A stretch of 64,000 nucleotides of DNA, taken from positions 6,662 through 70,661 of the forward strand of contig JAUSIP010000001.1 in NCBI GenBank assembly GCA_030648005.1. The letters run 5' to 3'. This DNA comes from a bacterium (GTDB taxonomy: Bacteria > Patescibacteriota > Minisyncoccia > Phycocordibacterales > UBA12445). The position numbers and the translations under genes were made by a program. The stretch's first letter is position 1. Each line of letters starts with the position of its first letter. Below, piece by piece: positions 5,399 to 56,799 of this stretch. A model generated the notes under the pieces. It saw only the letters and a list, made by a program, of their open reading frames with translations, was not told the DNA's origin and searched no databases.

Positions 5399-6730
5399 CT
5401 ATCCGCGTCGTTCTCCATCATCCTCAAATTTAAGTAGGACCCTGAATACCGGCGTTTTGCCGGCTAGCTCTTTGTCACCACCCTTCCAGATAGCCATCAC
5501 GACTCCGGAACCTTCGCCCATTTCAGATATTTCAGGAGTAAGCTTGCCTACGAAAATCCCGCTCGCATCTATTGTTCCAATAGGACCCACAACCCTCCAA
5601 TCTACGGAACTTGTGACATCCTCCTTGCTTCCATCACTTAAAACAAGCATCGCCCTAAAGGCAATTTTCTGCTGTTCTGCAAAATCAGAGTTAATGAAAG
5701 TTCTCGACTCTATAATAAGATCAACAGGAGTACCTCGCCTACTTCTTATTATCCCCCCGATCGGACTATCTATTCTCTGTTCAACATTGTTCAATATCTC
5801 TTTCTTAATTTCCGCCCTCACCTCAGCTCTTACCTCCGCTTTTTTTACCGGTTCCGTAATCTTTCTCTCAACTATTTCTCCCACTCTCCTCTCTTCTGTC
5901 TTAATATTAATTTTGGTCTTCAATTCAGTCCGAACTTCTCTCAATGAATCTTTAAGTAACTCCTCACGCAGTTTTTCCCTCAGAACTCCACGTGACTTCA
6001 GATCTTTCACTTGAACTTCGATCTTAGTATCCTCAGACTCGTTGGCATTCAACCACTCTTGATCTCTAGGCACGATACCCGCGCCTGCGCTAGCCGGACT
6101 AACTGCAACGTCCACAGCGACAACCACCTTTTTATTGACTCTAATCTTCTCAACATCATCATTGGTCCACTCGACAAATTTGCCTTCACTTAGAATTATC
6201 GGTTCTTTGCCGACTCGTTCTCCGGTCTTAGGGTCTATTACCTGGAGAGCAACTGTATGTTGGGATCCAAACATCTTAGAGTGCCCTCCCTCCGAACTCA
6301 TACCAAAAGCCGTACCACGTACGGTCGCCACGGCGTTGGATGTCTTCACCTCCCAGACTGAAGCCGGTGTGGCAAGATCTATCACCTTAGACCAAACTTT
6401 CCCGACCGCCAGGCTAACTTTGACAGAAATAGCTCCGCTTGCTTTGTCGTAATTTCCATCATTCAAGGTGATTGTGGTGCCAGAATCCAAACGAAGCACC
6501 GAGCCGTCCAAGAAGTGCACCTTAGCCTCTCCATCGGTGCTTACTACGAGAGTTATCGGGTAGTCCAAACTGTCTCCACTTTTAAGACCAGAAACTTCCC
6601 CCTTAGTGATAGTTATCCACGGCTTTGTCGGAAGCTCTACAACGGGTGGAATCTCCTTTCCATCACCACCCACTAAAGACAGAAACAAAATAGGGATGAA
6701 TAAAACCGCTGCAATAAATATATTTTTCAT
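5399..6730 (-). CDS. Exported FecR-domain protein with C-terminal Ig-like region
   Basis: Signal/TM, DGSVLRLDSGT, VKTSNAVATVRGTAF; C-terminal DGSKEDVTSSVDW...GTIDASG. Confidence 0.85.
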   Translation of the reverse strand: MKNIFIAAVLFIPILFLSLVGGDGKEIPPVVELPTKPWITITKGEVSGLKSGDSLDYPITLVVSTDGEAKVHFLDGSVLRLDSGTTITLNDGNYDKASGAISVKVSLAVGKVWSKVIDLATPASVWEVKTSNAVATVRGTAFGMSSEGGHSKMFGSQHTVALQVIDPKTGERVGKEPIILSEGKFVEWTNDDVEKIRVNKKVVVAVDVAVSPASAGAGIVPRDQEWLNANESEDTKIEVQVKDLKSRGVLREKLREELLKDSLREVRTELKTKINIKTEERRVGEIVERKITEPVKKAEVRAEVRAEIKKEILNNVEQRIDSPIGGIIRSRRGTPVDLIIESRTFINSDFAEQQKIAFRAMLVLSDGSKEDVTSSVDWRVVGPIGTIDASGIFVGKLTPEISEMGEGSGVVMAIWKGGDKELAGKTPVFRVLLKFEDDGERRG

Positions 6731-51487: not shown

Positions 51488-51726
51488 GATTTTCCTCCTT
51501 CAGGTGGTGTGTGTACGAGGTGCCATGTGAGCCATGGGACATGCTTTTTGACGAGCGCGTTCAGATCGGGATAGACCATGATCGTGAAGAGGCCGAATGG
51601 GTGCTTGTATCTCTTCTTCACCATCTTGGCGGCTTTATTTACATTCTTTGCCTCCACAAATGCTATGTCCATATCAGAATGCGTGGGCGCGGCATAGCTG
51701 TAGGTGACTACGCAGAATTCTAGCAT
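51475..51726 (-). CDS. Hypothetical protein
   Basis: Overlaps both neighbouring genes (translational coupling). Confidence 0.55.
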   Translation of the reverse strand: MLEFCVVTYSYAAPTHSDMDIAFVEAKNVNKAAKMVKKRYKHPFGLFTIMVYPDLNALVKKHVPWLTWHLVHTPPEGGKSCHL

Positions 51727-52340
51727 GAGCACCTTCTTTTCTGGGTATCATGATTAGGAATCTCGATATGCGAAACAGGAACCCACTTCATTGGCCCACG
51801 GACTTTATGACAATGTTCAGCTGAGATCTCGAGAGCATCAATGACGATCTTAGCGGGATCCATCTGCCCGAAGTCAGCACTCAGATAAGCATGATGCATG
51901 GCGCCAAGAGCATAAGAGAACCCCACCCCTATAGCGGCGAAGGGTAAGGCCGGATCTTGAATAGAATAATTCATGCCAATTTCATAAACCCAATTTCTAT
52001 AACAGATAAGAAAATTTGATCCTATCTCTTCCTCACCAGCCTTGTAATTACCTCTCTTGAAAAGCTTCTGCATGGCAGGAACCATCTTCAAGATTAGAAA
52101 ATTGCGATTGACCTCCCTATCGAGAGTTAGCTCCTTCTGCTCGGGCAACCTAAGAGATCTCATCAAATCTGCCGCGCGATAATCACCATCAAAGGCAATC
52201 ATAACATCCGGACTCTTAACCTGCTTGATTTTGAAGAATTTCACATCATTTCTTGTTGCGGCGTTATCGCCATAAGTACAGAGCGAGTCAGCGCCGACAA
52301 CTGTGAGATTATTGTGAACCAGCGCCACGACGCAAGTCAT
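51720..52340 (-). CDS. Ntn-hydrolase, proteasome-beta/HslV-like
   Basis: MTCVVAL..VGADS...K, AAIGVG..YALGA, ALEISAEH; Thr at position 2. Confidence 0.75.
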   Translation of the reverse strand: MTCVVALVHNNLTVVGADSLCTYGDNAATRNDVKFFKIKQVKSPDVMIAFDGDYRAADLMRSLRLPEQKELTLDREVNRNFLILKMVPAMQKLFKRGNYKAGEEEIGSNFLICYRNWVYEIGMNYSIQDPALPFAAIGVGFSYALGAMHHAYLSADFGQMDPAKIVIDALEISAEHCHKVRGPMKWVPVSHIEIPNHDTQKRRCSC

Positions 52341-53359: not shown

Positions 53360-53545
53360 CTAGTTTTTCCAATGGAGTACAATCTCAAAATAAAGGAAGA
53401 GTGCCCCGGTGACTGCCCAAGATAGGATCTCGAAGATTATCGGCTTGAAATTTATTTTATGCAGGGTCATTGCGAGTGATCCGAAAACAACTATCAGCAC
53501 GGCGAGTAATACAATCAACTCTTTCTGTGTTTCTATCACGCTCAA
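53360..53545 (-). CDS. Small two-TM hypothetical protein
   Basis: 61 aa, two hydrophobic segments, AGGAGAGG upstream. Confidence 0.5.
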   Translation of the reverse strand: MSVIETQKELIVLLAVLIVVFGSLAMTLHKINFKPIIFEILSWAVTGALFLYFEIVLHWKN

Positions 53546-53652
53546 CCTCTCCTTTTGGAATTTCTAAACTAACCTTACCAAATATTTATATATTATAAAA
53601 GACCCCCATCTTTTGCTTTTTTAGTAATAATTTGATATATTTTACTTCATAT

Positions 53653-53728
53653 TCCTCGGTAGTCCCGATTCGATTCATCGAATCGAGGATCCCGACAGGG
53701 GTCGGGACTCAGTGGTTTAGTTGTTAAC
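53653..53728 (+). pseudogene. tRNA-Asn 5' fragment interrupted by a 45-nt twin-hairpin insertion (53663-53707)
   Basis: TCCTCGGTAG + insert + CTCAGTGGT...TGTTAAC matches the intact tRNA-Asn downstream. Confidence 0.8.
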
Positions 53729-53735
53729 TTAATAT

Positions 53736-53810
53736 TCCTCGGTAGCTCAGTGGTAGAGCAGCTCGCTGTTAACGAGTTGGTCGTAGGTTCGAATCCTACC
53801 CGGGGAGCCA
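53736..53810 (+). tRNA. tRNA-Asn(GTT)
   Basis: Anticodon arm GCTCG-CTGTTAA-CGAGT; GTAGG-TTCGAAT-CCTAC; CCA. Confidence 0.95.
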
Positions 53811-53948
53811 AGTGAGCGAAGCGAACGCTCCACGAGCAAGCAAACTGCTTTGCTTGCGTGGTAGGATTCGAAAAGGTTCTCCGTTATCCGATGGCAATCG
53901 GATCGGAAACCTGTACCGTTCATGTAATGAAAGAATCCTTCTAAAAAA

Positions 53949-54566
53949 ATGAAAAACCCCAAAGTAATAATCTACGACAACGACGGAATGATCTGCCATA
54001 GTGGCCGATTTAGCGACAGTTATTCTAAGGAGTTTGGGATTGAGATGGATATAATGAGTCCCTTTTTCGAAGGACCATTTAAAAACTGTCTCGTTGGAAA
54101 AGCAGACCTGAAAGAGGAGTTAGAAAAAGTTTTAGATATATGGAACTGGAAAGGGACAGCCAACCAGCTTCTTGATTACTGGTTTTCAGTAGGAAGCACG
54201 CTCGACGAGAAAGTTTTCCCTACTATTTCAAAATTTAAAGATCAAGGTCTAATAGTATGTCTGGCAACTAATCAGGAAAAATATCGAAAAGAATATTTAG
54301 TTACAAAATTTGGATACGACAAAGTATTTAATGAAATCTTTTCTTCTGCAGAACTAGGCGCTTATAAGAACAGCGAGAAGGGTCTCCAAAAAACTTTCGA
54401 CATCTTGAAAGATAAATATGGCATTGAAGATAGAGACGAGATCATGTACTGGGATGACCGAGAAGGAAATGTTGAACATATAAATCAGTTTGGTATGAAC
54501 GGTCAGCATTATAAAAATTATGAGGAGTTTAGGGATGTAATGGCCGGTCTTGGCTACTTAGTTTAA
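53949..54566 (+). CDS. HAD-superfamily hydrolase
   Basis: IIYDNDG (DxD), LATNQ, FSSAELG..K, YWDD. Confidence 0.88.
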   Translation: MKNPKVIIYDNDGMICHSGRFSDSYSKEFGIEMDIMSPFFEGPFKNCLVGKADLKEELEKVLDIWNWKGTANQLLDYWFSVGSTLDEKVFPTISKFKDQGLIVCLATNQEKYRKEYLVTKFGYDKVFNEIFSSAELGAYKNSEKGLQKTFDILKDKYGIEDRDEIMYWDDREGNVEHINQFGMNGQHYKNYEEFRDVMAGLGYLV

Positions 54567-54570
54567 TTTT

Positions 54571-54972
54571 ATGCAAAATAAAACAACTCACGAATCATTT
54601 GTTTTAAGACAATCCACACTTCCAAGTGCAGGAATCGGAGTGATTACCTTACACGACATAGCCAAGGGTACATATATGGAGCTTTTTCGTGATGGTTTTG
54701 AGGAGGAAATTAGGGATGAGTCTGATGTGCCGAAGCCACTCAGGGCATACTGTCTCTATCAGGGTAATGGCAAGATCTTATGTCCAAAAATGTTCAATCG
54801 TATGGATATCGGAAATTATCTCAATCACTCAGAGAACTGGAATATGGTCTATGAAAAAGGCAGGGGTTACTTTGCTTCTCGAGATATTAGAGCCGGAGAG
54901 GAACTCTTTGCCAACTATAGAGATCTGGGAGAGCCCGAAGACCAGAGAGAGGAGTATTACAAGGTGCATTAA
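54571..54972 (+). CDS. SET-domain protein (lysine methyltransferase-like)
   Basis: SAGIGV, YLNHS, RDIRAGEELFANY. Confidence 0.88.
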   Translation: MQNKTTHESFVLRQSTLPSAGIGVITLHDIAKGTYMELFRDGFEEEIRDESDVPKPLRAYCLYQGNGKILCPKMFNRMDIGNYLNHSENWNMVYEKGRGYFASRDIRAGEELFANYRDLGEPEDQREEYYKVH

Positions 54973-55073
54973 TACTTTGACCTTCAGCATTTCTTGGAGC
55001 AGAGCGAGTACGATGCGAAAGGTGTACTGTTCCCGTAATGAAAGAATCCTACCCGGGGAGCAAAAATAAAATA

Positions 55074-56483
55074 CTATCTTTGGTAGTGTGTTGAATTTTT
55101 AAATTCCCAGTTACCGACCGAGCAAGAACCGTCCTGATGCTCGATCTGTAATTCACTTGCACTTGTAAGTTGTACTATAATTCTACCGCTCGTTATTCCT
55201 CGCTCATTATTCCTGTACTGATGATTTCCATCATTGTCATAGCAATAAGTAGAACCCGGCACAACTTCATTAAATTTTCTATTTATATTTCCCAATGAAT
55301 TAGCTGTAAATATCCATTTGGTCGGCTGAGAAACAAACATTCCACTTGTTGATATAACAGATTCACCAGAGAACCTATTGTTCAATCCAAAGTGGAGTAA
55401 TTTACCCCAGTCGGCGGGCCTCATTGGAGACGCGTTTCCAATAAACCAATCGCCCTGTAAAGTCCCGGTAATATCATGTTCAACAGTTCCACAATTACCC
55501 TTTGCTGTTGGTTCAAGTTTTGCCAAAAGCTGTTCTCTAAGTGGAGAAGAAAAATAATTATAAGGACAAGTTGAGTGTTTTGTCAGAAAGCCGTGTCTCG
55601 ATGGACTTATAAAAGAATGCGTGACGCGTAAATCCCATGTGCCAAAATTGAAATTCCCCTGCATCCTACCCACGGTGCCAAGCGGTGTTCCCTCTACTAT
55701 TTTATTCAAAACCATTACAGGACAATTGTTACTACCCGGCGAATCACTTGAATTCGGACATTTATATTCATCAACAATCTTCTTCAGTACTGGCGAAAAA
55801 CCCTTGATGTGATCAACGACACCAAACACGTCCTTGCAAAACGCATATTTAATTGTGTGATCTTCGGGATCCTGAGTAGCTCCATATCTTGGGGTTATCA
55901 AAATAATCCACATATCTCCGGGTGCTACAAGCGGTGTCGTTTGAGTTGTTCCTTGACCATTAACTGCTATGTAAGTATCCGAACTAATACTTGCGAGAGT
56001 ATGTTCTGGAGGGTTTGCTGATCCGATAGGCTCAATACCCACTATAGAGTCAAGAGGAACGGGGGATGTCTTCATCAATACATTTTCACAATCAGGAAGC
56101 AGAGCTCGCTCTTCGTCAGAAAGAATCTCCCACCCCAGACGCTTTTTTATCAGATCCTCGGGCTTATTGCTAAACCCGTGGTTTACCCAATTTACAATAT
56201 CCTCCACTCTAACTTCTTTTTTGTTACCAGAATCTTGCGGTGTTTGATTTATCGGGGCAACTTTTGGAAGTTCCGCTACGCCAATATCTTGCCGGGGAAC
56301 TTCTTTCTCACTCTCTTTCTCACTCTCAGTCGCTACTTTCACTACAGGCTTATCTGTATCTAATTTCTTAATCTCTTTTACTCCGTGATTCGAATATAAA
56401 TATCCACTGGCAATTAAAAATACGGTAACAAAACTAATAATAATGACAGGGGCAAACCCTCTTTTATAACAAATTATTTTCAT
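55074..56483 (-). CDS. Membrane-anchored exported hypothetical protein
   Basis: 469-aa ORF with an N-terminal KRGF + TM segment and paired Cys. Confidence 0.75.
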   Translation of the reverse strand: MKIICYKRGFAPVIIISFVTVFLIASGYLYSNHGVKEIKKLDTDKPVVKVATESEKESEKEVPRQDIGVAELPKVAPINQTPQDSGNKKEVRVEDIVNWVNHGFSNKPEDLIKKRLGWEILSDEERALLPDCENVLMKTSPVPLDSIVGIEPIGSANPPEHTLASISSDTYIAVNGQGTTQTTPLVAPGDMWIILITPRYGATQDPEDHTIKYAFCKDVFGVVDHIKGFSPVLKKIVDEYKCPNSSDSPGSNNCPVMVLNKIVEGTPLGTVGRMQGNFNFGTWDLRVTHSFISPSRHGFLTKHSTCPYNYFSSPLREQLLAKLEPTAKGNCGTVEHDITGTLQGDWFIGNASPMRPADWGKLLHFGLNNRFSGESVISTSGMFVSQPTKWIFTANSLGNINRKFNEVVPGSTYCYDNDGNHQYRNNERGITSGRIIVQLTSASELQIEHQDGSCSVGNWEFKNSTHYQR

Positions 56484-56799
56484 ATGAATATACTATCATG
56501 AAGTAAACTTGCAACCGGCCTCATTATCCACAAATTAAATAGCGAAACATTAGTGAGAATAATCATTTTTTGTTACTCTTCTAATTATGCTAAACGGCCA
56601 AAAAATTCTTGTCTACGCGCCGTTTGATAGCGAGATCTCTGATATTAGTTCACGGGAAGATTTCGGTTATGATGTTTAGCTTACTGTATAGAGAACTCAT
56701 ATAGTCCTTGTTGGATAAAATTGTTATAATATTCTCTTGTTCGAGGAGCCAGAAAAACGCCGCGAGATTCCAGAATGAAAATGGTGTAGAATAATAACT

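Follow-up and report, generated by a model that had tools for sequence, protein, structure and literature searches.

Two accessory genes and a tRNA-matched folded element behind the tRNA-Asn gene of a patescibacterial genome

Patescibacteria have tiny genomes with variable accessory genes, and the route by which such genes are gained is poorly understood. Islands integrated at tRNA genes, together with their integrase-less derivatives (cis-mobilisable elements), grow by site-specific accretion, in which newer DNA comes to lie beside the tRNA gene and older DNA is displaced outward. REP and REPIN repeats are moved by RAYT transposases of the Y1 HUH type, and elements of the CTX-phi type exploit the Xer recombinases of the host at dif. 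With regard to integrons, the accessible part of PMC4889954 indicates that CALINs can exist without IntI, so that a missing IntI alone does not exclude a CALIN. We compare with these systems a locus at which two genes lie behind a tRNA-Asn gene, between an intact folded element and a decayed one.

The tRNA-Asn locus and its two elements

The locus was found in a 64,000-nt stretch of DNA (the window) from a genome of 757 kb in 20 contigs. A first-pass annotation of the window had described a cassette-like island, in which a HAD and a SET gene are placed between two copies of a structured module, with a copy of the tRNA 3' end behind the second. This order of genes and elements is real, and the features are as follows:

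53736-53810, plus strand: intact tRNA-Asn(GTT) gene (ARAGORN; Rfam RF00005, 71.8 bits)
53811-53872, plus strand: left part of element 1 (inverted-repeat search I1; folding)
53873-53932, plus strand: intact core of element 1, with H1, GTAC and H2 (folding)
53933-53939, plus strand: 7-nt core at the left cargo joint, repeating the 3' side of the T-loop (sequence; tail lengths in the family)
53949-54566, plus strand: HAD-superfamily hydrolase, 205 aa (NCBIfam and Pfam HAD matches below cut-off; structure-profile match)
54571-54972, plus strand: stand-alone SET-domain protein, 133 aa (PF00856, E 2e-9)
54979-55043, plus strand: element 2, a decayed core with its guide missing (folding z score; comparison with locus L207)
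55044-55061, plus strand: exact 18-bp direct copy of the tRNA 3' part (direct-repeat search D4)

A contig of sequencing run X1, possibly the source sample of this DNA, matches 53832-56500 letter for letter, which supports the assembly at both cargo joints. HAD and SET, both on the strand of the tRNA, are the sole genes inside the insert, which carries no integrase, as the annotation had it. The 16-mer that it reported at both junctions is exact at 53924 and 55035 and is found nowhere else in the window, even when up to three mismatches are allowed. In an Rfam scan of 53400-55200, the tRNA alone was above threshold.

Element 1 copies the T-arm and the 3' acceptor strand of tRNA-Asn (53788-53810). 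Its left part consists of a mini-hairpin spacer, a short inverted copy of the acceptor strand and a hairpin with a CTGC loop, followed by the guide, as we call the 13-nt inverted copy of the tRNA-Asn T-arm at 53860-53872. The left part and the tRNA end are predicted to form a three-way junction. The core is built from the long hairpin H1 (53874-53912), the tetranucleotide GTAC (53913-53916) and the short hairpin H2 with a GTA triloop (53919-53931). Folding of element 1 together with the tRNA end gave a z score of -7.65, and none of 200 shuffles was as good.

Element 2 starts exactly at the base of H1, the place where the guide ends in intact copies, and it has no guide. The inner pairs of H1 and H2 are broken, with two of the five H2 pairs lost, and the region folds like shuffled DNA (z 0.24). 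Among its closest kin is an intact, guide-bearing element of the Asn type in G003, a genome of the same genus; this element (L207) shares 84% identity and the right arm of H2 with element 2 and lies on a different contig from the G003 locus that shares an upstream gene with the window. The broken H2 may point to a recombination chimera or to decay, and decay would explain it as well, H1 being degraded too. The 18-bp copy at 55044-55061 is likely the original tRNA end, displaced. The A-rich run past 55061 resembles the sequence downstream of tRNA-Asn in G002 and the tail of the Asn-type element in G003. The annotation is to be corrected in that the short hairpin of element 2 is partly broken and its region folds no better than shuffles; it also overlooked the inverted copy of the T-arm, and the module is a genome-wide repeat that is not private to the island.

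Several further features were noticed around the locus. Directly upstream of the intact gene, an incomplete copy of the tRNA-Asn 5' part lies at 53651-53709 and appears by eye to be broken by a double-hairpin insert; interrupted 5' tRNA copies of a like kind were seen by eye at L013 and L021. A GIY-YIG-like gene ends ahead of tRNA-Asn in genomes G001 and G002 (by eye). Directly past the island, positions 55074-56483 on the minus strand encode a 469-aa protein with no Pfam match, which was not found in five close relatives and is probably also accessory. A stand-alone proteasome-subunit-like protein (PF00227) is encoded at 51720-52340 on the minus strand, and a 35% identical relative lies near tRNA-Asn in G002.

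A folded element family in Patescibacteria

The module occurs in about 20 copies in this genome. By eye, 17 copies of the GTAC type and four variant copies were counted besides element 2, mostly behind tRNAs and some upstream of tRNAs; two copies presumably sit at rRNA ends. A strict pattern of the module gave 82 matches in 37 of 61 related genomes, compared with nine for a reversed pattern, which was used as the reference because three shuffles had returned identical counts of 4 (1 with a longer stem). For the 80 loci listed among 121 matched in a genome collection, every named group is Patescibacteria, and the remainder are labelled bacterium only. The module is a Patescibacteria-wide family that is usually free of cargo. 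Its elements are about 140 nt in size and are placed at dozens of tRNA types, tmRNA and, apparently, rRNA ends. The literature gave no description of such an element, in a search of listings that was thin on subscription journals. Phage and plasmid records contained no match to element 1, and four scans of viral contigs gave 24, 69, 10 and 3 pattern matches, none with the structure or context of the element.

We collected 191 distinct copies in 181 loci. A tRNA lies within 350 nt of 129 copies and farther away from 13, and no tRNA is in view for 49, 33 of which have too short a flank. The guide matches the tRNA beside it with zero or one mismatch in 13 nt in 68 of the 129 copies; for other tRNAs the figure is about 3%. 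Among 183 copies there are 46 distinct arm pairs. Cores at least 90% identical are found at different tRNA types in 3 of 72 pairs within a genome and in 2 of 4044 pairs across genomes, both of the latter within one genus. Near-identical cores at different tRNAs, each with a guide that matches its own tRNA, indicate that the core moves between tRNAs and that the arms are re-matched to each. Tandem copies also occur. This tailoring to the tRNA is the surprising part of the locus, and a role of the element as a gene-capture platform is possible.

It is noted that core variants in this genome (G000) are also present at the anticodon arm of upstream partial tRNA copies and at apparent rRNA ends (C7 51295; C12 29541 and 39707; C8 4297 and 4629), so the T-loop is not the sole target. 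On contig C9, at 290-640, three tandem cores with Arg-like tails have no intact tRNA ahead, and one of their joints shares an A-rich 10-mer with the sequence preceding the HAD start in the window.

When copies were selected with no filter on stems, all 5 bp of the H2 stem were intact in 119 of 126, and in the triloop register 175-183 of 183 are paired at each position. G-T pairs are rare in the stems (6 in about 900 positions). GCGNAGC mini-hairpins were counted 23 times on the top strand and seven times on the bottom strand, the expected number being about three. Mini-hairpins with a GNA loop are highly stable as DNA and less stable as RNA, and they occur at single-stranded replication origins, according to the accessible part of PMC13037366. 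Based on the triloop register, the few G-T pairs, the top-strand excess of GCGNAGC and the stability of GNA loops in DNA, we infer that the element fold acts as single-stranded DNA.

Cargo genes, joints and candidate enzymes

The profile of the HAD protein matches structures of YihX-type HAD phosphatases with an E value of 3e-11, and the motif residues DxD, T, K and DD are present (alignment A1), so that the product is likely a phosphatase. The GC content of the HAD reading frame, 37%, falls in the lowest 3% of the genome's reading frames. The SET product is likely a methyltransferase, judged from its sequence, with the asparagine-histidine motif and Y116 invariant (alignment A2); it has 53 relatives at 54-74% identity, in a family that is patchy across Patescibacteria. 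A consensus scan gave no sigma-70-like site ahead of HAD. Among 250 genomes of the order, 9 have a relative of HAD and 6 a relative of SET. One of the 250 weakly matches both proteins, on separate contigs; relatives of the two were never found as neighbours, and HAD is in no SET locus. A HAD query against metagenome contigs found no relative.

A module within 200 nt downstream was seen for none of 32 SET relatives and none of 10 HAD relatives. SET relatives do cluster behind tRNAs without a module: a same-strand tRNA, mostly tRNA-Gln, lies within 1.5 kb upstream at 13 of the 25 loci whose flank was long enough (two loci being near-duplicates), compared with 28 of 642 genes of this genome. HAD relatives are weakly tied to tRNAs (2 of 10), and one of them, at L043, begins right behind a tRNA element. 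The tRNA end collects genes with or without the module. Two SET relatives (L346 and L362) are flanked by copies of another site; sites of this type are also present at the ends of islands with a large serine recombinase (LSR). This second site type, about 25-30 nt long and ending in a degenerate tRNA tail, was noticed at L346 385-935, L362, L241, L290 and G000 C3 about 5850-6100. SET genes are enclosed by it and LSR islands have it at their distal ends, and this site may represent the true boundary of cassettes in these bacteria.

The tails of tRNA-linked copies show a bimodal distribution, with the acceptor strand retained in 80 and missing from 47, and 38 of the 47 cut tails stop at 6-8 nt, counts that are biased by the 6-nt core demanded in the pattern that gathered most copies. 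The left cargo joint falls in this 6-8-nt class, where family members usually break off. Joints between module and tail are exact in 63 of 77 cases and carry indels of 1-4 nt in the other 14. An automatic test of 119 module-bearing tRNA loci found genes between two modules at L266, the single case among the 48 loci whose flank reached 3 kb or more, and at L279, which has a shorter flank; L277 and L235/L241 were added by eye. At three other loci (L201, L263 and L290) genes lie between the tRNA and a distal element. Module-bracketed cargo recurs but is rare; most modules are empty, and long gene arrays were not seen. That both joints of the present insert fall on recurrent element boundaries is the strongest support for the capture reading of the first-pass annotation.

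No backward joint of the kind that a circular form would give was seen in the contigs of four runs, which as contigs drop rare forms. A joint of 53808 to 55047 in X1 was considered as an empty allele and not counted, its short side having only 24 letters with ambiguous letters between. Searches found neither donor DNA for the insert nor a near-identical empty allele. In a plain box scan of 53781-55070 with an attC consensus, the upstream box had no match and the downstream box had one, inside HAD.

The orphan integrase that the annotation suggested looking for did not turn up as an integron integrase. The genome has a single tyrosine recombinase, which is XerA-like (258 bits, above cut-off) and reaches 138 bits against a cut-off of 265 for TIGR02249. 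IntI is above cut-off in one of 61 genomes, not this one, and a tyrosine recombinase match is found in 58 of the 61. Three Y1 genes are flanked by palindromes other than the module. When strict-pattern matches without a stem are left out, Y1 genes are found in 31 of 43 element-positive and 9 of 18 element-negative genomes (p 0.14, kin not being independent), and LSR genes in 26 of 43 and 13 of 18 (p 0.56). This 97% complete genome has no match to the IS110 recombinase PF02371. ComEC is present, as are two reverse transcriptases, on a contig without a module copy. These two (G000 C19; L008 and L009) look like enzymes of diversity-generating retroelements, the best family match being below cut-off, and at L226 an element lies directly behind a reverse transcriptase gene of similar type. 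The sole GIY-YIG match in the genome looks like UvrC and was rejected as a candidate.

The tRNA-Asn locus was compared across relatives, as had been proposed. Neither HAD nor SET is present at any of 20 loci, examined over up to 1.5 kb per side with several ended by contig ends; the element lies directly behind the tRNA in three of them, and an LSR gene within about 1 kb in five. Four genomes of the same genus (73-100% complete) gave no match to HAD and one distant match to SET. In G006, tRNA-Asn is followed by an intact empty element, then by accessory genes and a distant HAD. G003 has the same upstream DUF417-like gene as the window, and in G001 and G002 the same tRNA lacks an element.

Origin of the insert and comparison with known systems

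We propose, with a probability of about one half, that HAD and SET were added step by step at the tRNA end, by accretion, rather than arriving as an integron cassette. A first element would have settled at tRNA-Asn and pushed the old tRNA end outward, giving what are now element 2 and 55044-55061. A later piece made up of a tRNA end, element 1, HAD and SET would then have entered in front of the older element; tRNA homology would have anchored it, and its far side would have been joined at the base of the old core, with removal of the old guide. The incoming DNA may have been single-stranded, with transformation as its probable route of entry, and could have been joined at the folded boundaries of the element through template switching or host recombination, aided by microhomology. 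Under accretion, the 16-bp repeat at the two joints reflects the shared ancestry of two Asn-type elements and not a target duplication.

Accretion is favoured because decay affects the distal copy and the proximal one is intact, and because the kin of element 2 include the Asn-type element of a same-genus genome. The clustering of SET relatives behind tRNAs without a module, the 14 tail joints off register and the presence of ComEC argue for it as well, as do the dispersal of the family near tRNAs, the near-identical cores at different tRNAs of one genome, and the DNA-type folds of H2 and of the GCGNAGC mini-hairpins. The order of events is read from decay and position, as neither donor nor empty allele was found. 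Counting against accretion, the right joint lies exactly at the H1 base, which untargeted joining would rarely hit, and the large share of exact tail joints would also fit a site-specific enzyme. HAD relatives are weakly tied to tRNAs, and a tRNA gene is a short homology anchor. Homology-facilitated illegitimate recombination in other transformable bacteria is inefficient and involves very short segments, as far as the accessible part of PMC6382021 reports, and its application to a 1.2-kb piece here would be an extension by analogy.

The joints on recurrent boundaries could also mean that the folded cores are attC-like sites for a recombinase, perhaps one of the host such as its single XerA-like enzyme, and that HAD-SET with the core of element 2 entered as a cassette at the 7-nt core of element 1. 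The genes bracketed by modules at L266, L279, L277 and L235/L241, hairpins that resemble folds of single-stranded DNA, the near-universal tyrosine recombinase match and the lack of a promoter-like site ahead of HAD are all consistent with such a cassette. We nevertheless consider it rather unlikely, given the single IntI-bearing genome among 61, the missing downstream module in all cargo relatives, the one two-module locus among 48 with sufficient flank, the decay of element 2, the imprecision of some joints and a promoter-like sequence, seen by eye, ahead of the first cargo gene at L279. What survives of the integron-like capture proposed by the annotation is an integrase-less insertion at a tRNA end with boundary joints and recurrent bracketed genes; against an integron character stand a genome without IntI, elements without attC boxes, cargo relatives without the module and the 14 imprecise joints.

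Boundary joints are also an argument against an origin of HAD-SET as the remnant of an LSR island at tRNA-Asn, from which recombinase and sites were deleted and in which the folded elements were bystanders. The insert moreover holds no LSR piece and, on either strand, no match to the 25-30-nt site, and LSR and element presence are not significantly associated. We regard such a remnant as unlikely, even with LSR genes near tRNA-Asn in five of 20 relatives' loci and at tRNA-Gln and tRNA-His in this genome, a piece of an LSR between two elements at L235/L241, and SET relatives at L346 and L362 between sites resembling LSR island ends. (An island of this kind was noticed in G000, where tRNA-Gln(CTG) and an LSR gene stand at a contig end, C8 55711-56990, and a matching tail and element follow about 6 kb of accessory genes on C3, 1-6100; the two are probably one island split by assembly.) It would be very surprising if the module were instead a structured RNA trailer controlling tRNA processing, with genes placed between copies through chance rearrangement. 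In a transcript the guide could pair with the 3' half of its own tRNA, and the fold does favour the transcribed strand; however, three-base loops, the near absence of G-T pairs, patchy presence of the element in close relatives, tandem copies and cores common to different tRNAs all speak against it.

Beyond the accretion that we prefer, the data show that tRNA 3' ends gather accessory genes and that a target-matched folded repeat moves among tRNAs without an evident enzyme of its own. A bolder and doubtful reading would give Patescibacteria an integrase-independent capture platform, in which a single-stranded DNA element pairs with any tRNA through a guide rewritten from that target, and the folded core has two reactive boundaries, between which foreign cargo of the HAD-SET kind is inserted and exchanged. 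Were insertion directed by the guide, it would amount to a natural mechanism of DNA-guided targeting. If the cargo merely piled up, the locus is an ordinary by-product, and the element family is still unexplained.

As in tRNA islands, the tRNA 3' part is duplicated from the T-loop on, and newer DNA lies near the tRNA with older DNA outward. A far-end copy of the tRNA 3' part and patchy presence are both found here; an integrase gene inside is not. In contrast to such islands, the element is about 140 nt long and contains an inverted copy of its target, one core family serves many types of RNA gene, and some joints are imprecise. REP and REPIN repeats are likewise scattered non-coding hairpins in which a foot of four bases precedes a short stem, and this genome has three Y1 genes; however, these genes stand beside other palindromes, and co-occurrence with Y1 is not significant. 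No REP with copies of its own target is known to us. Like CTX-phi and other Xer-exploiting elements, the element is integrase-less and has a folded single-stranded site, and a host enzyme of the Xer type is available, but its target is the tRNA T-loop and not dif, and no copy was found in the viral, phage and plasmid collections.

Homology-facilitated illegitimate recombination, as described in the accessible part of PMC6382021, resembles the locus in having one homologous anchor and a microhomology joint with no integrase, but involves no dedicated folded repeat and leaves the tailored guide unexplained. The comparison with integrons and CALINs is drawn from the accessible part of PMC4889954. 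The locus differs from them in having no IntI and no attC boxes, a branched fold where theirs is a single stem, arms that match each host tRNA, mostly empty copies, and cargo relatives without the site. It is like them in its short genes of the same orientation between folded, sequence-variable repeats with no nearby integrase, in a recognition that is likely single-stranded here, and in a distal site that is possibly chimeric.
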